Shown: positions 9,572 to 62,837 of the stretch, in pieces
Layout: each line of letters starts with the position of its first letter
How positions within the stretch are numbered: the first letter of the stretch is position 1
Source: a virus
Virus genome (UHGV): UHGV-1519562
Strand: one strand, 5' to 3'
DNA length: 64,000 nt
Made by a program: the position numbers and the translations under genes
The notes under the pieces: model-generated
Databases searched by the model: none
Told to the model about the DNA's origin: nothing
Seen by the model: the letters and a program-made list of their open reading frames with translations, nothing else

Positions 9572-10618
9572 TTAACCTCTTTTCTTGTTTCTACAACATT
9601 TACATATACTGTACCAACCATCTTTACTTGTTTTATTTTTTGAAAAGAAATCATTATGAGCTGGTTTAAGTTGACCACACTTTGAACATTTTTTCAAAGG
9701 TTTATTTAAAAGTTTATATTGCCAAAAAATAAAATCTTCTTTGGCAGCTTGCGCTATTAGCTTAGGAATTTTATTCCGCCATAAACTAGAAATATATTCT
9801 AAGCTATGTTTAATGCCAAATTCTGTTTGTAATAATTGCTGAATTTCAATGTTTTGCTTTCCATCAATTTTATATTCGACTAATCTTTCATACAAGGGAA
9901 AATTAGCTAAAGCTAACTCACTAATTTCATCAAAAGACTGAATTAAGTACCAAGTATCTCCTTCAAAATTATCATAACTATCTTGCTTTAATCGTGAATA
10001 GTTACATAAAATTGCAGAACATATTTCAGGGTTCATTAATGAAACTCCACTAATATGTACTTCTCCATTTTCATCAATAGTAGAATTATCCTCTAGTTTA
10101 ATAAAACCACTTAATGAACGAGTTAATTTATTAAAAATAATTGGACGTTGATATGCTTGTTTTATTATATATTGGTCTTTCCGCATATCTATTAAAGCCT
10201 TTTTCATAATATACGCATTTCTACCTGAAGTGCGTTTAAGGACGGCATCCCAATCATTAATTGTATTTCTTAATTGTTGCAAATAAGGTATATTTTCTAA
10301 ATCTTTTTTAGTAATTGAAATTTTAGGTTGAAAAATTGTATTTTTATTTTCAGAAATTAAATTATAAATGCCGTCTTCACCATTTTCTAACTGGCTGACA
10401 AGACCCTCAAAAGAAGTTTCACGTTTATTAACTGTAGTTAAACGATTTTCTGTTAAAATTTTCTTTTCTTTTTTCTCTTGTTTTTCCATACAAAGAATTA
10501 GATAATCCGCGAGCACTTCTAAATAAGAAGAATTTAGATCAGGGTTTTCTGCGATTATTTTTTCAACTAATTCTTTACGCTCTTCAGGAGATTCTAATGT
10601 ATAATCTAATTTAATCAT
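9572..10618 (-). CDS. hypothetical protein with C-terminal zinc ribbon
   Basis: 348-aa ORF; C-terminal CSKCG...CKCC resembles the zinc ribbon at the N-terminus of the next gene. Confidence 0.5.
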   Translation of the reverse strand: MIKLDYTLESPEERKELVEKIIAENPDLNSSYLEVLADYLILCMEKQEKKEKKILTENRLTTVNKRETSFEGLVSQLENGEDGIYNLISENKNTIFQPKISITKKDLENIPYLQQLRNTINDWDAVLKRTSGRNAYIMKKALIDMRKDQYIIKQAYQRPIIFNKLTRSLSGFIKLEDNSTIDENGEVHISGVSLMNPEICSAILCNYSRLKQDSYDNFEGDTWYLIQSFDEISELALANFPLYERLVEYKIDGKQNIEIQQLLQTEFGIKHSLEYISSLWRNKIPKLIAQAAKEDFIFWQYKLLNKPLKKCSKCGQLKPAHNDFFSKNKTSKDGWYSICKCCRNKKRG

Positions 10619-41193: not shown

Positions 41194-41441
41194 TTGATTT
41201 TATAAAAAAATTATGATATAATATTAATAGAAAATAAGAAATACAATATTTTCTATACTAACCAATCAAAATTACTTGAGAGATATTACTACCTAAACTT
41301 CACTCTTAAAAAGAAGGTTCACGGATGGGTCACAAGGCTACGGCTTAACCAAGAAGATAAAACGCCTTTCGCTGAAGAGCGAAACATAAATACTAAGGTT
41401 CAATGATTGGTGACTTCTAAAATCGAAAAAGAACCTTATAT

Positions 41442-42003
41442 AGTGTTGTAGCTCAGTAGGTTAGAGCCAGCGACTTATTTACGTTGATAATTAATATGAA
41501 AGAATTAACAGTTAAAAGAAAAGGTATTCTTACAGAAGAAAGATTAAAATTGTGGTTTTTGTTACAAGGATATTCTGTAAGTGTACCTATCGGAGATAAT
41601 GACAGGTATGATTTTATCGTAGATTTTGATGGTAAATTGATTAAAATGCAAAGTAAAACAAGTAATTTAACTAGAACAGTAGATTGCCTTAATTTTGCAT
41701 GTGCTTCAACTAAATATAATAGTACAGGTTCACATAGAACTAAATATACAAAAGATGATATTGATTATTTTTGTACTATTCATCCTGAAACAAATCAAGT
41801 TTATATTGTACCTGTTGATATTTGCGGAAATGAATGTAATTTAAGATTTGCCGCTCCAAAAAATAATAATTATAATGGAGTAAAAATGGCAAAAGATTAT
41901 GAAGGTGAAAAAATGATTGAAAGGATTTTAAATTCCTAATTAGTTAATTAGGAAAACGTAAATAAATCGCTAGACGTGGGTTCAAATCCCAACAGCACTA
42001 CCA
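41442..42003 (+). tRNA. tRNA gene interrupted in the anticodon loop by a 0.48-kb ORF-bearing insertion (anticodon ambiguous)
   Basis: 5' part 41442-41473: acceptor AGTGTTG, U8, D-arm GCTC/AGTAGGTTA/GAGC, anticodon stem AGCGA; 3' part 41967-42003: TCGCT, T-arm GTGGG/TTCAAAT/CCCAA, acceptor CAGCACT, A, CCA; flanking 9-nt inverted repeats extend the anticodon stem. Confidence 0.6.
41496..41939 (+). CDS. PD-(D/E)xK-like nuclease encoded inside the split tRNA
   Basis: motif RYDFIVDFDGKLIKMQSK similar to the small nuclease at 5034-5390 (RFDFAV...IEYQGKQH); ORF fills almost the entire insertion. Confidence 0.55.
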   Translation: MKELTVKRKGILTEERLKLWFLLQGYSVSVPIGDNDRYDFIVDFDGKLIKMQSKTSNLTRTVDCLNFACASTKYNSTGSHRTKYTKDDIDYFCTIHPETNQVYIVPVDICGNECNLRFAAPKNNNYNGVKMAKDYEGEKMIERILNS

Positions 42004-43368: not shown

Positions 43369-43490
43369 GAGACATAATCAACCACCTCCACGCGGTATGT
43401 CTTGGGTAAAGCGAACGGTTGAATGATTTTGGGTACATTTGGATAATTTAGTAGCCAAAAAAACTCCATAATATAATGGAGGGATGTATA

Positions 43491-43952
43491 ATGAGTTATA
43501 TTTATAGAATTATTAATAATATAAACGATAAGGTTTATATTGGAAAAACTGCTTTTGATATTTCAAAACGATTCAAAGAGCATTGTAATGATGCTTTTAA
43601 GAAAACAGAAGAAAAAAGACCATTATATGCGACAATGCGTAAATATGGGATAGAGCATTTTACAATAGAACAAATTGAAGAGTGCTCTGACGCTGCGGCC
43701 GCAGACAGAGAAGCCTATTGGATTAGTATGTATTCTGCTTATGAAAAAGGATATAATGCGACTCTTGGTGGCGATGGTAAATTTTTATATGACCACAAAG
43801 CAATTGCTTTGCGACTTCAAGAACATCCATATTCTCAAGATGTAGCAAAGAAGTTTGGATGTTGTGTTGATACAGTAAGAAATATTGCTAATCAATATGG
43901 TATTTCATTATTAGTCAATAATGGCCATAAAAAAAACTATTTCTGCTTATAG
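43491..43952 (+). CDS. GIY-YIG homing endonuclease (catalytic domain plus first DNA-binding module)
   Basis: YIYRIINNINDKVYIGKT...RFKEH...YN.TLGG GIY-YIG signature; ATG 43491 after GGAGGG. Confidence 0.8.
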   Translation: MSYIYRIINNINDKVYIGKTAFDISKRFKEHCNDAFKKTEEKRPLYATMRKYGIEHFTIEQIEECSDAAAADREAYWISMYSAYEKGYNATLGGDGKFLYDHKAIALRLQEHPYSQDVAKKFGCCVDTVRNIANQYGISLLVNNGHKKNYFCL

Positions 43953-44124
43953 TAAAAGCGGTGTTTTAATAAAAACTTTTGAATCTACCTCAGAAGCAGC
44001 TCAGTGGTGTTATGATAATCAAAAATGTGCCACTTTGCACTCTGGTGTTAGAAGCCATATAGCACAATGTGCTAATGGGATTCGTAAATCTGCATATAGT
44101 TATATATGGAAATATGAAAATTAA
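43921..44124 (+). CDS. C-terminal DNA-binding module of the GIY-YIG endonuclease, in a different frame
   Basis: ...IAQCANGIRKSAYSYIWKYEN resembles the C-terminal module of Seg/I-TevI-like endonucleases; frame changes at an A8 run around 43926-43933. Confidence 0.55.
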   Translation: MAIKKTISAYSKSGVLIKTFESTSEAAQWCYDNQKCATLHSGVRSHIAQCANGIRKSAYSYIWKYEN

Positions 44125-44157: not shown

Positions 44158-44230
44158 TCTAAAATAGTCAAAAGGTTAAGACATCACTCTTGAAAAAGTG
44201 AAAATATGGGTTCGATTCCCATTTCTAGGT
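44158..44230 (+). tRNA. tRNA-like with 8-nt anticodon loop CTTGAAAA
   Basis: acceptor TCTAAAA/TTCTAGG (one A-C mismatch), D-arm GTC/AAAAGGTTAA/GAC, anticodon stem TCACT/AGTGA, T-arm ATGGG/TTCGATT/CCCAT; flanked by TAGACTC (44121) / GAGTCTA (44237). Confidence 0.4.
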
Positions 44231-53534: not shown

Positions 53535-55058
53535 ATGGAAAATAAGATGCTTAATATTTTGAAGGAAAAGAATACTCATTCTATCACTGAGAATAGCGGT
53601 TTGACTTATAATTCTACGATGAATGGAATTATGGATTTGTTTGCTCTTGGTGGCGCTTATCGAAATCGCTCAGATGATGATTGTATTTTTCTTTTTAAAA
53701 AGGCTTTTGAGGAAGATATTTCTTATGCCTTGAAGTGTCTCTTTTATTTGCGAGATGTACGTGGTGGACAGGGAGAACGCAGATTTTTTAAGGTTGTAAC
53801 TTCTTGGTTGGCAGTTAATCATATCGAGGAAATGCGTAGAAATCTGAAGTATATTCCTGAGTATGGTCGCTGGGATGATTTGTATGCTTTTGTTGATACT
53901 CCGCTTGAGGCAGATGCTTTTAAGACTATGTATCATCAGCTTGCTCTTGATGTTCAGTGTAAAACTCCTTCTCTTTTGGCTAAGTGGTTGAAGTCTGAAA
54001 ATACTTCTTCTGCGGAATCTCGTATGCTTGGAACTAAAACCAGAATGGCCTTTAATATGTCTCCTAAGCAGTATCGCAAAACTCTCTCTATTCTTCGTGA
54101 AAGAATTAGAGTTTTGGAAAGATTGATGAGTGAAAATCGTTGGGATGAAATTGAATTTGATAAGATTCCTTCTAAGGCAGGTCTAAAGTATCGCAATGCT
54201 TTCGCAAAGCACGATATTGAAAGAGAAAAGTCTAATAAGGTAACTTATGAAGAGTTTGTAAAGGATTCTAATACTAAGGTCAATGCTGATACTCTGAATC
54301 CCGCAGATGTAGTTCATGCTGTTATGTCTAAATTTCCTTATTATAGAGGAAATTTTAATGGAACCGATGTAGAGAGAGCTGCACTCAATAAGTATTGGGA
54401 TAATCTAAAGGATTATTTTAATAATGCTGTTTTTGACGGTGTTGCTGTCGTTGATACTTCTGGTTCTATGTGTGGTTTTTATGGTAGTGAGAAAACTATT
54501 GCACCTATTGATGTAGCTATTTCTCTTGGTATGTATTGTGCTGAGAAGTGTAATCCCAATTCTCCCTGGTATGGACATTATATTACTTTTTCTCGAACTG
54601 CAAGATTGGTGCCTGTTGAAGGTATTGATTTTGTTGATAAGGTGCGTCGAATTTATCAAAAGAATCTTTGTGAGAATACCGACATTAAAAGTATTTTTGA
54701 TTTGCTATTGAGTAATGCTATTAAATATAATATTCCTAATGAAGAAATGCCTAAAAACATTGTAATCATTAGTGATATGGAATTTGATTATTGCGCTGGT
54801 TATTATAATAGTGATGAATATAGATCTGAAATGGAAAAGATTATGCAGGTTTGGAACTCTCATGGTTACACTACTCCGCATTTGATTTTCTGGAATGTTG
54901 ACGCTCGAAATGATAATATTCCCATGAAGATGAAAGATGGTATTACTTTTATTTCTGGCTACTCTGCGGTAACTTATGAAATGTTGATGACTGGTAAAAC
55001 TGGTTTTGATTTGGTTTTGGAAAAGTTGAATAGCAAGAGATATGAAGTAATCAAGTAA
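53535..55058 (+). CDS. vWA (MIDAS) domain protein, DUF2828-like; possible Ro60/Rsr-like RNA-binding protein
   Basis: 507 aa; MIDAS-like VAVVDTSGSM in the C-terminal half after a roughly 300-aa mainly helical N-terminal region (architecture of TROVE plus vWA proteins); family assignment is from memory. Confidence 0.5.
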   Translation: MENKMLNILKEKNTHSITENSGLTYNSTMNGIMDLFALGGAYRNRSDDDCIFLFKKAFEEDISYALKCLFYLRDVRGGQGERRFFKVVTSWLAVNHIEEMRRNLKYIPEYGRWDDLYAFVDTPLEADAFKTMYHQLALDVQCKTPSLLAKWLKSENTSSAESRMLGTKTRMAFNMSPKQYRKTLSILRERIRVLERLMSENRWDEIEFDKIPSKAGLKYRNAFAKHDIEREKSNKVTYEEFVKDSNTKVNADTLNPADVVHAVMSKFPYYRGNFNGTDVERAALNKYWDNLKDYFNNAVFDGVAVVDTSGSMCGFYGSEKTIAPIDVAISLGMYCAEKCNPNSPWYGHYITFSRTARLVPVEGIDFVDKVRRIYQKNLCENTDIKSIFDLLLSNAIKYNIPNEEMPKNIVIISDMEFDYCAGYYNSDEYRSEMEKIMQVWNSHGYTTPHLIFWNVDARNDNIPMKMKDGITFISGYSAVTYEMLMTGKTGFDLVLEKLNSKRYEVIK

Positions 55059-55068
55059 ATAGTATTTT

Positions 55069-55098
55069 AAGAGAGGTAATTTTACCTCTCTTTTTTTA
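55069..55098 (+). terminator. intrinsic terminator
   Basis: AGAGAGGTAA TTT TACCTCTCT hairpin plus T7 run. Confidence 0.7.
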
Positions 55099-55112
55099 TA
55101 AGGAGGATTAAA

Positions 55113-56174
55113 ATGATATTATTAAATGATGATAATAGACATAGAGACTTTACAGGTGTAACTCGTTTCCATAATGCGGGCTATTTTGGAGAAAGAGTAA
55201 ATGCCGCAAGTGGAGAAACCTGGGATATTAATAGATATAATCCAGATAATTTAGTAAGAAATTGTTTAAAGGACAAACAATTTTCAGATGAACATCCAAT
55301 AAATACTGCGGCAACATTTTTTCAAGTAGCTCCAAAAGCTCATCTATTTATGCTTTATTCCATTGATGGCAGTTATGGCAGTAGAGATAATTATAACTCT
55401 AAATTTTTTAATGAATCAGTAGAAATTATTGAAAAATATAATATTACTAATATGTTTACCTCTTTAAATTGCAGTAGACATACTAAATTTTTTGAAGATT
55501 TAAAAAATTGGTATATTAAACATCCTAGTTTTAAACCCTTTTGGTGTGCAGGAAATGATTCTTCTAAAAAATATAATCCAATTATGGAAATTGAAGAAGT
55601 AATCGGCGTAGCCGCTTATACTTTAATGGTAGATGGTACAGTAAATCCTGCTTATTATTCTAGTATTAGTAGCTATGTAGATTTTTCTGCACCTAGTATG
55701 ATTTATTTAAATCCGCAAGCTACAAAACCAGACGCAGCAACTTATTCCAATTCTGGCACTTCTTTTTCTACACCTTGGTTATGTGGAATGAGCTGTCTGG
55801 TAGATGATTTCTTTATTGATAAAAAAGGATTACCTCTAACAAGAGAAGGAATGATTCAATTCTTCAAAGATAATTGTAAAGATATAGGCGATAAGGGAAT
55901 TGATCCAAAAACAGGATTTGGTGCGGTAATTTTACCTGAACCAAATTCTATTGATATTGATAAATATTATAATATTGGGAGGACAAATATGAGTACATTA
56001 GATAAATTTAAAGATAAAAATGATATTTCTAATTGGGCTAAAGCAAGTGTTGAATGGGCTGTTAATACAGGTATTCTTCAAGGTGATGATAAAGGCTATC
56101 TTTTACCCAAAGCTTACCTGACTAGAGAGCAAATGGCAGTTATGTTAGAGCGTTTTAAAAATATTATAAAATAA
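55113..56174 (+). CDS. S8-like serine peptidase with C-terminal SLH (S-layer homology) domain
   Basis: GTSFSTPWLCG resembles the subtilase catalytic-serine motif GTSMA.P; C-terminal W.KASVEWAVNTGILQGDDKGYLLPKAYLTREQMAVMLERF matches the SLH consensus. Confidence 0.5.
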   Translation: MILLNDDNRHRDFTGVTRFHNAGYFGERVNAASGETWDINRYNPDNLVRNCLKDKQFSDEHPINTAATFFQVAPKAHLFMLYSIDGSYGSRDNYNSKFFNESVEIIEKYNITNMFTSLNCSRHTKFFEDLKNWYIKHPSFKPFWCAGNDSSKKYNPIMEIEEVIGVAAYTLMVDGTVNPAYYSSISSYVDFSAPSMIYLNPQATKPDAATYSNSGTSFSTPWLCGMSCLVDDFFIDKKGLPLTREGMIQFFKDNCKDIGDKGIDPKTGFGAVILPEPNSIDIDKYYNIGRTNMSTLDKFKDKNDISNWAKASVEWAVNTGILQGDDKGYLLPKAYLTREQMAVMLERFKNIIK

Positions 56175-57507: not shown

Positions 57508-58254
57508 GTGAAACAGTATTTTATCACTGGGGATACGCACGGTAAAAATTATCAACGTATTTGTCAAATGATTGAACAATATTCTTGCTCTCCTAAAAAT
57601 TCTTCTCTTATTATTCTTGGAGACGCAGGATTTAATTTTTGGTTAGATAAAAAAGAGCAAAAGTGGAAGAAAAGAGTAAATGATTTAGGATATTCGATTT
57701 ATTGTGTGCGGGGAAACCATGAAGAGCATCCTAAAAATTTACCTAATATTCAAGAAATTTGGGATGCAGAAATTCAAGGTTGGATTTATATTCAACCAGA
57801 TTTTCCTAACCTTAAATATTTGATTGACGGAAATACTTACTACTTTAATAGTCATTCTGCTATTGTTCTTGGTGGTGCTTATTCGGTTGATAAACATTAT
57901 AGATTAATGCAGGCTACTTTGAATCGTACCGATGATTGGACTGGTTGGTTTCCTGATGAACAATTAACACAGCAAGAGATGTTAGATATTAACAATAAAG
58001 TGATTAATCATCATTATGATTTAGTTCTATCTCATACTTGTCCTTTTGATTGGCGTCCTACTGCTTTATTTCTTCCTGGAATTGATCAATCTACTATTGA
58101 TAATACTATGGAAATTTGGATGAATGATTTAAAAGATAAGTTTTCTTGGAATAATTGGTTCTGGGGACACTTTCACGCAAATACAGATTACTATGATGGT
58201 AGATATATGTTATTTGAAAATATTTATAATTTAGAGGATTTAATTAATGATTGA
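57508..58254 (+). CDS. calcineurin-like metallophosphoesterase
   Basis: GDTHGK, GDAGFN, GNHEEH, WGHFH metal-binding motifs. Confidence 0.7.
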   Translation: MKQYFITGDTHGKNYQRICQMIEQYSCSPKNSSLIILGDAGFNFWLDKKEQKWKKRVNDLGYSIYCVRGNHEEHPKNLPNIQEIWDAEIQGWIYIQPDFPNLKYLIDGNTYYFNSHSAIVLGGAYSVDKHYRLMQATLNRTDDWTGWFPDEQLTQQEMLDINNKVINHHYDLVLSHTCPFDWRPTALFLPGIDQSTIDNTMEIWMNDLKDKFSWNNWFWGHFHANTDYYDGRYMLFENIYNLEDLIND

Positions 58255-59509: not shown

Positions 59510-60787
59510 TTGATATTTATGGCATACTATGGTTTAGTAACTAAAATTGAGAATGTAAGAAAAGACCCTAATTCTGATAGACTCTATTTAGCTGACTGTT
59601 TTAGAGAAGGAGTTATTGTAGGCCCTGATATAAAGGAAGGTGAGTTAGTTCTTTATCTTCCTACTGATGGAGCTATTGAGCGTTGGTTTGGTGATGAGTT
59701 TAAGCTTTTCCGCAAGAATTTAGATGGCACCGCACAAGGTGGTTATTTGGAAAATAATGCTCATATTAGAGCAATTAAGCTGAGAGGTAATGAATCTTCT
59801 GGTATTGTTATTTCTTATTCTGCTATTGTTGAGCATTTTGGTGAGCAAAATTGGAAAGACGGCGATCAAGTAACTGAAATTAATAATAAACTGTTTTGTT
59901 ATAAATATATTCCTAGACCTTCGGCTACTCCTCGCACTACTCCTAAGACTTCTTATAAAGGTCGTAAAGCAGCTGGAATTAAGTATCCTGATTTTGCTAT
60001 GCACATTGATACTGCTCAATTAGCTTACAATCTTGGAATCTTTAGACCTGGAGATAAAATTAATCTAACCCTTAAAATGCATGGAACTAGCCAGCGTAGT
60101 GCATATACTTGGGCAGAATATCCTATGTCTTGGTTTAGAAAACTATTTCATATGAAGCCTAAGAGAAAGTTACAGTATGTTTTAGGTACTCGTAGAACTG
60201 TTGTTACTACTGATGGGGCAGGTTATTATGGTAATGACAAATTTAGATTTAGTCATCATGAAGCTTTAAAACCTTATCTTGATGAAGGTATGGAGGTTTT
60301 TTATGAAGTAGTTGGTTGGTATGGAGCAAAAGAAAATGAAACTATTATGCCAATTGTAGATAATAGTAAAATTAATGACAAGAAATTTATGAAAAAGTTT
60401 GGTAAGTATACTACTTTTTCTTATGGTTGTACTCCTGGTCATTCTGCGATGTGGATTTATAGAATTACTTCTCACAATGGAGAGTATGAATATTCTCCAG
60501 AGGAAATTACTACTTGGTGTAATGAATATGGTTTTAATCGTGTTCCTATCATTGAGGATTTTGAATTTACTACTGTTGATGACTTGCTCGCTAAAATTGA
60601 CAAATATTTTGAAGATATTGTTGATCCAGTTGGTTTAACTCATGTTAAAGAAGGTGTAGTGGTTAGAATCGCTAATAGATGTACTTTTACTGCATTAAAA
60701 CAAAAAACCTGGGAGTTTAAAGTCCTTGAAGGTCTAGTTAAAGATACTGAAACCCAGCCCGATATGGAAGAAGCACAGGAGATTTAA
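59510..60787 (+). CDS. ATP-dependent RNA ligase (Rnl2-like nucleotidyltransferase motifs)
   Basis: motif I KMHGTS (compare T4 Rnl2 KIHGTN), motif IV HVKEGVVVR, motif V LKQKTWEFK. Confidence 0.65.
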   Translation: MIFMAYYGLVTKIENVRKDPNSDRLYLADCFREGVIVGPDIKEGELVLYLPTDGAIERWFGDEFKLFRKNLDGTAQGGYLENNAHIRAIKLRGNESSGIVISYSAIVEHFGEQNWKDGDQVTEINNKLFCYKYIPRPSATPRTTPKTSYKGRKAAGIKYPDFAMHIDTAQLAYNLGIFRPGDKINLTLKMHGTSQRSAYTWAEYPMSWFRKLFHMKPKRKLQYVLGTRRTVVTTDGAGYYGNDKFRFSHHEALKPYLDEGMEVFYEVVGWYGAKENETIMPIVDNSKINDKKFMKKFGKYTTFSYGCTPGHSAMWIYRITSHNGEYEYSPEEITTWCNEYGFNRVPIIEDFEFTTVDDLLAKIDKYFEDIVDPVGLTHVKEGVVVRIANRCTFTALKQKTWEFKVLEGLVKDTETQPDMEEAQEI

Positions 60788-62065: not shown

Positions 62066-62341
62066 ATGTCTAAAGACCCTAGAAAATATGAAATGCACGA
62101 TTTTTATTGTATGAATTGCGGAAAGAAGTCAATGTCAATTCCTCGATTAAGAGGACGTTTTAGAGAAGTTGGGCATAAGAAAGTTATGTATTGCCCTCAT
62201 TGTAAAGAAACTGTTAATATGGTAGAATGTAGAAACGATGAAGAAGCATATAATTTTAAACTAGATTTTGAAGAAGGTCTTTTTAAAGAAGAAGCACAAA
62301 ATAGTATTTCTTATGTAAAGGAGTTTGGTATTTATGATTAA
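62066..62341 (+). CDS. zinc-ribbon protein (hypothetical)
   Basis: CMNCG...CPHC pair; ATG 62066 after GAGGAG. Confidence 0.5.
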   Translation: MSKDPRKYEMHDFYCMNCGKKSMSIPRLRGRFREVGHKKVMYCPHCKETVNMVECRNDEEAYNFKLDFEEGLFKEEAQNSISYVKEFGIYD

Positions 62342-62837
62342 TTTGCATATTCTTTGTGGTATTCCTGCTTCCGGCAAATCTACTTGGGCAAAACAACAGA
62401 ATGGTAAAATTATTTCAAGAGATGAAATCCGTAAGAATTATGTAGGCGAAAATCCTGGAAAAAATTATTTTAGTAAAGAAAAACAAGTATATAAAGAAAT
62501 GATTACAAATATTAAAATTGCAATCAAAGAAAATATAAAAAATATTTATATAGATGCAACTCATATTGATGTTTCTTCAAGAGCTAAACTTTTAAACAAT
62601 TTTTTTAATCTAAAAGATAAGAATAATATTAATCTTACTTTTGATTATTTTCCTATTCTTTTAGATGTTGCTTTAAAAAGAAATTCTGAAAGAGAAGGTT
62701 TTGCTAAAGTCCCAGAAGAAGCAATAAAAAATTTTTATTTTAAATCTTCTATTCCTTCTAAGGATGAGATGAATAAATATCTTGATTGGGGTTTTCATAA
62801 TGTGAATACTATTTTGCATTATACTGAGGAGGTGTAA
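62325..62837 (+). CDS. polynucleotide kinase-like P-loop kinase
   Basis: Walker A GIPASGKST at the N-terminus; 170 aa; immediately followed by a phosphoesterase gene (Pnkp-like kinase plus phosphatase arrangement). Confidence 0.6.
   Translation: MVFMINLHILCGIPASGKSTWAKQQNGKIISRDEIRKNYVGENPGKNYFSKEKQVYKEMITNIKIAIKENIKNIYIDATHIDVSSRAKLLNNFFNLKDKNNINLTFDYFPILLDVALKRNSEREGFAKVPEEAIKNFYFKSSIPSKDEMNKYLDWGFHNVNTILHYTEEV

Follow-up and report, generated by a model that had tools for sequence, protein, structure and literature searches.

The viral genome UHGV-1519562 carries a tRNA-Ile(UAU) gene that is split in its anticodon loop, between nucleotides (nt) 36 and 37 (written 36|37), by a 486-nt insertion filled almost entirely by a nuclease gene. 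The DNA analyzed is a 64,000-nt stretch of this genome, referred to here as the window, and all of its positions are numbered over the whole window. Comparison with related loci marks the insertion as a mobile cassette carrying a homing-endonuclease gene of the I-Ssp6803I family, apparently without a ribozyme of its own, and its two ends are predicted to pair with each other and with the anticodon loop in a helix that runs through both junctions. We give about an even chance to a reading in which protein-dependent excision and ligation would remove the cassette and restore tRNA-Ile(UAU).

When introns were allowed, ARAGORN called one interrupted tRNA at exactly 41442-42003, composed of a 76-nt cloverleaf and the 486-nt insertion in its anticodon loop, which bears out the two separated tRNA halves recognized in a preliminary description of this DNA; neither ARAGORN at its default settings (16 tRNAs in the window) nor Rfam (15 tRNAs) called it. 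On the plus strand, the 5' exon (41442..41478) comprises the acceptor strand, the D arm, the anticodon-stem strand AGCGA and C32-U36 (CTTAT), the intron-like cassette (41479..41964) begins TTACGTT and ends AACGTAAATA, and the 3' exon (41965..42003) holds A37 A38, TCGCT, the variable loop, the T arm, the acceptor strand, A73 and an encoded CCA. The junction was assigned by analogy with a cassette of the same architecture, L005a, and its intact alleles, as well as with Enterococcus phage EFP01 compared to EFDG1 (L numbers denote the compared loci, namely the homologues' contigs, 9 IMG/VR loci and 46 metagenome loci). Intact alleles on three IMG/VR contigs (L067, L068 and L071) are base-for-base identical to the spliced product of L005a, which fixes its junction at 36|37, its loop as CTTAT^AA and its anticodon as TAT. 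As the window loop and helix are laid out as in L005a, the window anticodon is UAU (Ile), and the mature anticodon that had been considered undecidable from sequence can be read after all: the alternatives UAA and UUA (ARAGORN's default label being 'Stop(tta)') are ruled out by the intact alleles. Splicing of the window gene in silico at 36|37 yields a canonical 76-nt tRNA-Ile(tat). An intact paralogue, which the preliminary description had named as the sign of a simple pseudogene, was looked for as well, and ARAGORN, by default and with introns allowed, found no other tRNA with anticodon TAT in the window, where AUA occurs at 11 per 1000 codons in the long open reading frames (ORFs).

The nuclease-like ORF that had been described within the insertion proved to be a single frame occupying 444 of the 486 bp (41496..41939, plus strand; 147 amino acids and a stop codon), leaving 17 nt at the 5' side and 25 nt at the 3' side, or 42 nt in all, as non-coding sequence. 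Its product matches the Pfam profile PF11645 (PDDEXK_5) at 106.2 bits (cut-off 26.1, E 2e-30), with residues 7-136 aligned on profile positions 4-136 of 138, and the I-Ssp6803I structure PDB 2OST at E 1e-7 (phmmer), where its YD...QxK motif aligns with that of 2OST_A. D39, Q52 and K54 are invariant in 21 homologues, and by family the product is thus a predicted I-Ssp6803I-type PD-(D/E)XK homing endonuclease. We found 75 homologues in metagenomes, at 31-99% identity, with that of L020 (ERZ1023658) at 99%; the close endonuclease family had no match in 100,044 species genomes, a single-protein scan of IMG/VR found nothing, and a DNA similarity search against deposited phages returned no match. 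Synonymous differences are distributed all along the ORF, at 0.11-0.41 of identical-residue pairs. Related endonuclease ORFs in L016/L046, L027 and L038 contain or end at in-frame stops, and those examined (L016/L046 and L038) are TAG; these ORFs are either pseudogenes or subject to TAG recoding in some of these phages, the latter of which would fit the possible amber-suppressor tRNA in L012 discussed below.

An inverted-repeat search paired two 17-nt arms that are 94% complementary in the window, the 5' strand consisting of nt 27-36 and intron positions +1 to +7 (41469..41485, AGCGACTTATTTACGTT) and the 3' strand of intron positions -10 to -1 and nt 37-43 (41955..41971, AACGTAAATAAATCGCT). 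The helix starts with the 5-bp anticodon stem and a C32/A38 mismatch, to which 11 pairs are added: U33-A37, three pairs of the anticodon UAU with the terminal AUA of the intron, and seven pairs within the intron (TTACGTT/AACGTAA). Inverted repeats extending the anticodon stem had therefore been correctly noticed, with two A-U pairs overlooked in an original count of nine. Across 21 distinct helix versions, aligned without gaps from nt 27 to +7 and from -10 to nt 43, standard pairs fill 94% of cells, compared to 61% in column shuffles and 37-44% when the partners are slid, and compensatory double changes occur in 15 of the 16 pairs. The covariation includes the pairs between anticodon and intron, at 34:-1 (U-A, G-C and U.G), 35:-2 (A-U, G-C, G.U and U.G) and 36:-3 (U-A and G-C), such that the 3' triplet of the intron tracks the anticodon of its host (ATA, ACA, AGC, CAA and CTA/CTG). 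Within one cassette lineage sharing the inner helix TTTCG/CGAAA, where the anticodon differs as TAT versus TGT, the intron triplet differs correspondingly as ATA versus ACA (L005a/L024 versus L026). G.U pairs are frequent, as exemplified by U.G at +2:-5 in 5 of the 21 versions, and the helix therefore points to RNA rather than DNA. Pairing to this extent goes well beyond chance, and the covariation shows a predicted RNA helix through both junctions to be under selection.

The geometry of the helix is equally regular, the inner part being mostly exactly 7 bp long and followed by two mismatches. As a whole it reads as 8 + 1 + 8 bp with two-fold symmetry about nt 35, and the junctions 36|+1 and -1|37 lie symmetrically on opposite strands, 3 bp apart, in an arrangement giving 3' overhangs. 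Abutting its 3' strand in the window is a 9-bp hairpin that includes the stop codon (41933..41954, plus strand), detected by the inverted-repeat search and confined to the close family, where it is kept in L001, L003, L005a, L023 and L024 with the compensatory change TTCC/GGAA versus CTCC/GGAG. A T-arm mimic beside the helix was considered as a general feature of these cassettes and rejected, since it is limited to the close family. Distant families have the stop codon itself directly beside the helix, where a terminating ribosome would open it.

The cassette recurs at about 30 loci, representing the 21 helix versions, in which splicing in silico at 36|37 yields canonical tRNAs called by ARAGORN. 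The commonest host is tRNA-Ile(TAT), as in the window, and the remaining ones are Thr(TGT), Asn(GTT), Gln(TTG) and Pro(TGG); the insertion point is always 36|37. Interrupted and intact alleles coexist in close relatives in three cases, namely L005a versus L067/68/71, L005b versus L007, and the cultured Enterococcus phage EFP01 versus its Schiekvirus relatives. L005b is a second, tandem cassette in L005 that splits a tRNA-Thr (L005:2006-2561), and its intact allele in L007 (1303-1377) is identical except for the whole anticodon stem, AGCGC/GCGCT versus GCGCA/TGCGC; this exchange suggests either that the stem arms move together with the cassette or that the intact allele represents a variant resistant to cleavage. 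In EFP01, a 463-bp PDDEXK_5 cassette interrupts, at 36|37, a tRNA-Asn(GTT) that is missing from the annotation (L072:1132-1667, corresponding to about 105242-105777 of KY549443.1); the identical tRNA-Asn gene is intact in EFDG1, and a total of 29 Schiekvirus relatives align with the flanks but lack the insertion. The annotation of EFP01 also shows recA and DNA polymerase in pieces. Remoter relatives of the enzyme are free-standing beside tRNA genes, in L034/35/40, Kuttervirus SM5 and Vibrio phage phi-pp2. The presence of an endonuclease gene within its probable target, together with the allele polymorphism, is the signature of a mobile homing element predicted to target tRNA anticodon stem-loops.

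The exons flanking these cassettes are mostly in good order. In 19 of the 20 cassettes tested, the exons spliced in silico were called as canonical tRNAs, with an average of 19.3 Watson-Crick pairs and 0.42 stem mismatches, as compared to 19.9 pairs and 0.61 mismatches in 56 uninterrupted tRNAs from the same loci. Among the tRNA(TAT) hosts this holds while the endonucleases diverge down to 36-40% identity. The comparative data thus lean toward a predicted splice-site helix maintained at the level of RNA, with intact exons.

These features are best accommodated by a model of protein-dependent excision and ligation, one of the two readings offered in the preliminary description, in which the cassette would be transcribed within the pre-tRNA, the helix would form in the RNA, and both junctions would be presented by it to a protein or ribonucleoprotein (RNP) endonuclease. 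After cutting, the exon halves would stay joined through the anticodon stem, so that an RNA ligase could reseal the U36-A37 nick, the phage ligase encoded at 59510-60787 being a candidate, with the neighboring kinase and phosphoesterase healing the ends if needed. Ribosomes translating the ORF would melt the helix at its 3' strand, and expression and excision should therefore be mutually exclusive. The cuts might be made by an RNase III-type enzyme specific for double-stranded RNA, by RNase P, which would act on the two 7-bp stems, or by the endonuclease that the cassette encodes. For an RNase III-type enzyme, the ORF-bearing intervening sequences (IVSs) of 23S rRNA would serve as precedent (PMC4990558; PMC11270868). 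For RNase P, the 5' end of a 7-bp stem falls at each junction, with the opposite strand running on as a 3-nt tail, and the two stems are arranged head to head. More broadly, we hold it possible, at a little below an even chance, that phages have a protein- or RNP-based tRNA splicing system in which a 17-bp helix would receive two symmetric cuts 3 bp apart and a ligase would reseal the loop.

Several observations weigh against such splicing. The 3-nt stagger that the junctions would require differs, we infer, from the 2-nt stagger of RNase III, and pairing of the nucleotides just 5' of the cut, which amounts to a paired leader, is expected to hinder RNase P. Furthermore, we know of no bacterial or phage enzyme that splices a helix of this kind. 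Sets of ligase, kinase and phosphatase are common in large phages as an anti-defense module, and EFP01, whose annotation is sparse, is not among the 379 records matching the window ligase, so that no shared phage-encoded ligase is evident. As phage tRNAs are dispensable and homing endonucleases selfish, the intact exons could also reflect repeated recent invasions. Finally, decayed copies exist. The cassette of L026 (about 940-1460), whose ORF has a stop, is flanked only by the mini-exons GACGA TTTGT ^ ... ^ AA TCGTT and sits between an intact tRNA(TAT) and a tRNA-Pro with the rest of its host tRNA missing, L029-32 are without a 3' exon while their endonuclease ORF is still open, and L038 has an aberrant T arm.

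The same decayed copies speak for a reading in which the endonuclease gene would simply have disrupted a dispensable tRNA, with the helix serving only the cassette and the tRNA halves being degraded, and we assign to this dead-tRNA explanation a substantial, if minority, probability. In one variant, the helix would be an RNase III processing or stability element that frees the endonuclease mRNA, for which RNase III-excised, ORF-bearing IVSs with terminal stems offer a model established in bacteria (PMC4990558; PMC11270868). The coexistence of intact and interrupted alleles in populations is likewise expected of a selfish element with a tolerable cost, and the growth of EFP01 in culture is compatible with either reading. 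A dead tRNA is, however, hard to square with exons that remain canonical in nearly all cassettes and paired like those of neighboring tRNAs despite deep divergence of the endonuclease, with the restoration of a perfect 7-nt loop in five tRNA types while the terminal triplet follows the anticodon, or with the lack of an intact tRNA(UAU) in the window. Moreover, relatives of the endonuclease lie harmlessly between tRNA genes (L034/35/40, SM5 and phi-pp2), so that an intergenic position was available to the cassette.

Should the exons be spliced, the encoded PD-(D/E)XK endonuclease might itself be the splicing nuclease or an essential RNA-binding cofactor, an explanation that we consider improbable. 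In its favor, the junctions flank the anticodon 3 bp apart with 3' overhangs, and Bonocora and Shub are said to have observed in 2001 that the DNA cuts of I-Ssp6803I leave 3-nt 3' extensions flanking the anticodon. The 17 bp of the helix also equal the reported specificity span of I-Ssp6803I (PMC3424549, Table 1), and tRNA-splicing endonucleases share the PD-(D/E)XK fold (PMC3424549). Against this, the family is DNA-specific as far as known, an A-form helix is unlike B-form DNA, and the catalytic motif is of the ordinary DNA-nuclease type. The intron arm +1 to +7 is, furthermore, about 26% identical to exon positions 37-43, which is the level expected by chance and argues against sequence mimicry of the second half-site, a candidate role of this arm that we accordingly dropped.

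A further alternative is a cryptic self-splicing intron, whether group I, group II or a small ribozyme, whose core would overlap the ORF; we hold this to be very improbable, even though endonucleases of this family otherwise reside inside tRNA group I introns (PMC13011429, section 9; PMC1995217, Table 1). The insertion offers 42 nt of non-coding sequence, compared to about 205 nt in the 655-nt Synechocystis intron (PMC1995217), and its end nucleotides and pairing topology are unsuitable for a group I intron. The last intron nucleotide is A in the window and most cassettes, C in Asn hosts, T in L003/L024 and G only in L043, and there is thus no invariant omega-G, unlike in group I introns. The 5' exons end in G36 rather than U in the Gln and Pro hosts, and nt 34-36 pair with the last three intron nucleotides and not with a 5' guide sequence near the intron start. 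The synonymous differences along the entire ORF argue against an embedded conserved ribozyme core as well. Rfam returned no group I or group II match at E<=10 in the region (RF00028 included), nor at E<=0.1 in 12 related loci, in agreement with the lack of group I core motifs noted at the outset; as even at E<=10 Rfam detects no group I intron in any part of the window, the surroundings of the HNH gene described below included, this negative comes without a positive control in this phage, and the argument against group I rests mainly on the available space and the end features. A group I intron in terL, to which the insertion had initially been contrasted, was not corroborated by Rfam either. 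An HNH/I-HmuI-like endonuclease gene is found in the window at 7140-7988 (minus strand), between the large ORFs 5435-6892 and 8374-9678.

Other intron classes and origins were considered and rejected. A group II intron is contradicted by the intron ends, with a start of UUACG rather than GUGYG, by an ORF for a PD-(D/E)XK nuclease in place of the usual reverse transcriptase and by the lack of an Rfam match. For an archaeal bulge-helix-bulge intron, two 3-nt bulges are not obtained in any register, the helix runs on without a break, and the pairs between anticodon and intron covary; a portal-like protein matching phages of Bacillota and the presence of an SLH-domain protein both point to a bacterial host, and the Bacillota-type portal makes an archaeal host with EndA unlikely. 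A transposon-type target duplication, by fill-in of a 3-nt staggered cut, predicts a direct TAT...TAT repeat, whereas the reverse complement is seen, with AGC opposite GTT through a G.U pair; G.U is used in the anticodon-intron pairing of both Asn and Pro hosts. Origin by hairpin closure of cut ends predicts T at -4, where A is seen, and interpretation of the inner helix as a relic of an earlier host's anticodon stem-loop agrees by eye with the window and fails for L001 and L005a.

The sealing and healing enzymes invoked by the excision-and-ligation model have candidates in the window. The region at 56.6-63.4 kb encodes a weak RlaP-like nucleotidyltransferase, two metallophosphoesterases, an RNA ligase, a YqeY-domain protein and a P-loop kinase, and the RNA ligase, kinase and phosphoesterases previously noted there are upheld by Pfam, homologue and PDB matches. 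The RNA ligase gene (59510..60787, plus strand; Pfam RNA_ligase E 1e-5), whose link to the split tRNA would be that of a candidate sealing enzyme, specifies a protein that shares 40-44% identity with annotated phage RNA ligases across 96-99% of the length; no relatives of it were found in the PDB. Candidate end-healing functions are encoded by a P-loop polynucleotide/tRNA-kinase-like gene (62325..62837, plus strand; Pfam AAA_33, PDB matches to PSTK and Pnkp1) and a metallophosphoesterase gene (62840..63385, plus strand; Pfam Metallophos), with a further phosphoesterase gene recognized by Pfam at 57508-58254. Together these genes make up a heal-and-seal RNA repair set, which fits a ligation step. 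Just upstream of the cluster, at 53535-56174, lie genes for a DUF2828/DUF7788 protein and for a subtilase with an SLH domain, the latter being a hint that the host belongs to those Bacillota that have an S-layer or an outer membrane.

Upstream of the split tRNA, a promoter-like site on the plus strand (41194..41222; TTGATT, 17 nt and the extended -10 element TG-n-TATAAT) was identified by consensus match only, and no such consensus match was found between the 5' exon and the start of the ORF. The intervening leader of about 220 nt (41223-41441) contains a GC-containing hairpin at 41367-41384. Downstream, tRNA-Met and the tRNA that follows it are separated by a free-standing GIY-YIG endonuclease gene (43476-43952); its DNA-binding C-terminal part runs on in another frame after TAG TAA (region 43476-44124), which indicates that the gene is frameshifted or decaying. 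At 44158-44230 a tRNA with an 8-nt anticodon loop (CTTGAAAA) is labeled 'tRNA-???(tgaa)' by ARAGORN and scores 51 bits as a tRNA in Rfam.

The same phage lineages, although not the window, contain five ORF-less insertions of 45-79 nt in tRNA anticodon loops, at 34|35 or 35|36 (L003:2772-2926, L006:3198-3331, L011:1154-1302, L012:2572-2693 and L015:685-830). Each has a unique register in which the insertion opens with a 7-bp acceptor-like stem and closes with the partner strand of this stem followed by N-CCA (ACTA once), three of the five also hold a T-arm-like hairpin with a 5-bp stem and 7-nt loop, and two score as tRNA on their own in Rfam (L003 2807-2882 and L015 719-786). The host loops are then canonical, for Asn, Lys, Ile, Gln and, in L012, CTCTAAA; with a CTA anticodon on a Gln-like body, the L012 host would be an amber suppressor. 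We read the short insertions as tRNA-like elements or whole tRNAs nested inside tRNAs. The same tRNA-mimic rule applies to L013:1980-2916, where an 862-nt cassette bearing a GIY-YIG gene in fragments interrupts tRNA-Glu(TTC) at 35|36. This cassette begins with GTTTGAT and finishes with a T-arm-like hairpin (ATGAG-TGCAAAT-CTCAT), ATCAAAC and ACCA, and the intact allele is L012:1980-2054; L013 has three consecutive interrupted tRNAs (Gln, Asn and Glu). The ends of these tRNA-like insertions coincide with ordinary tRNA processing sites, which suggests that insertions in the anticodon loop undergo processing in these phage lineages, or are at any rate tolerated there.

If removal and resealing do occur, they would constitute a new RNA-processing pathway: ribozyme-free mobile introns would be viable in bacterial viruses, the nested CCA-ending tRNA-like insertions would share the same processing world, and phage RNA ligases and repair enzymes would gain a role beyond countering host anticodon nucleases. 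If the cassette is not removed, it would provide a clear case of a homing endonuclease persisting in a gene without a splicing element, and the helix would be a new kind of element serving endonuclease expression. Either answer is directly testable, as a cultured phage with the cassette, EFP01, and about 29 sequenced relatives with the identical intact tRNA are at hand. In addition, split genes of this kind are missed by default tRNA finders, and phage tRNA repertoires are consequently undercounted.

To our knowledge, every intron so far known in tRNA genes of bacteria and their phages is a self-splicing ribozyme, and tRNA introns spliced by enzymes count as a hallmark of archaea and eukaryotes. 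The closest relatives of the present cassette are the group I introns of the I-Ssp6803I type, the eponymous 150-amino-acid ORF lying in a 655-nt group I intron of Synechocystis tRNA-fMet (PMC1995217, Table 1), with PF11645 relatives in the tRNA-Arg(UCU) group I introns of Bacteroidota and Campylobacterota (PMC13011429, section 9). They share with the cassette the endonuclease family and the anticodon-loop host site, and in both cases the enzyme is expected to target anticodon stem-loop DNA and the insertion to destroy that target. Those introns, however, measure 655 or >500 nt, include a ribozyme of about 200 nt and reside at 33/34 (PMC1995217; PMC13011429), whereas the window cassette has 486 nt, of which 42 are non-coding, no ribozyme features, an insertion point at 36/37 and a helix through both junctions. 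The archaeal bulge-helix-bulge introns, processed by EndA and RtcB, are similarly ribozyme-free, with two-fold symmetric pairing between exon and intron and a possible endonuclease ORF, and removal of the window cassette would likewise be by a protein nuclease and a ligase. Unlike them, the window has a continuous helix without 3-nt bulges, a 3-bp rather than 4-bp spacer, and a junction at 36/37 rather than 37/38.

Like the window cassette, the IVSs of 23S rRNA are selfish insertions at the tip of a conserved hairpin in a structural RNA, with complementary ends that extend the stem, sometimes with an ORF, and without a ribozyme (PMC4990558; PMC11270868), an example being the 428-nt, ORF-bearing and RNase III-excised IVS of Coxiella (PMC4990558; PMC11270868). 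Since rRNA functions in pieces, an IVS needs no ligation; the window, in contrast, combines a tRNA host expected to need resealing with a homing-endonuclease ORF and a 3-nt stagger. Upon infection by T4, PrrC cleaves tRNA-Lys, and Pnkp and Rnl1 heal and seal the anticodon-loop break (review PMC3400036), which sets a precedent for resealing by a phage RNA ligase. The window also encodes a ligase, a kinase and a phosphoesterase, but the T4 break is a host defense attack in which no insertion is removed, whereas the window would undergo a programmed excision. T4 likewise carries SegB, a free-standing homing endonuclease in its tRNA cluster. SegB and the enzymes of SM5, phi-pp2 and L034/35/40 represent the same or analogous enzymes beside their probable target tRNAs, but they lie between genes and interrupt nothing. 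Full-text literature searches turned up no account of phage tRNA genes with endonuclease cassettes that have no ribozyme, and the Jug-phage paper counts 80 PDDEXK_5 genes as stand-alone, with the term tRNA absent from its main text. Overall, the split tRNA-Ile(UAU) falls within the known homing-endonuclease-bearing tRNA insertions, and would become categorically new if enzymatic splicing were demonstrated.

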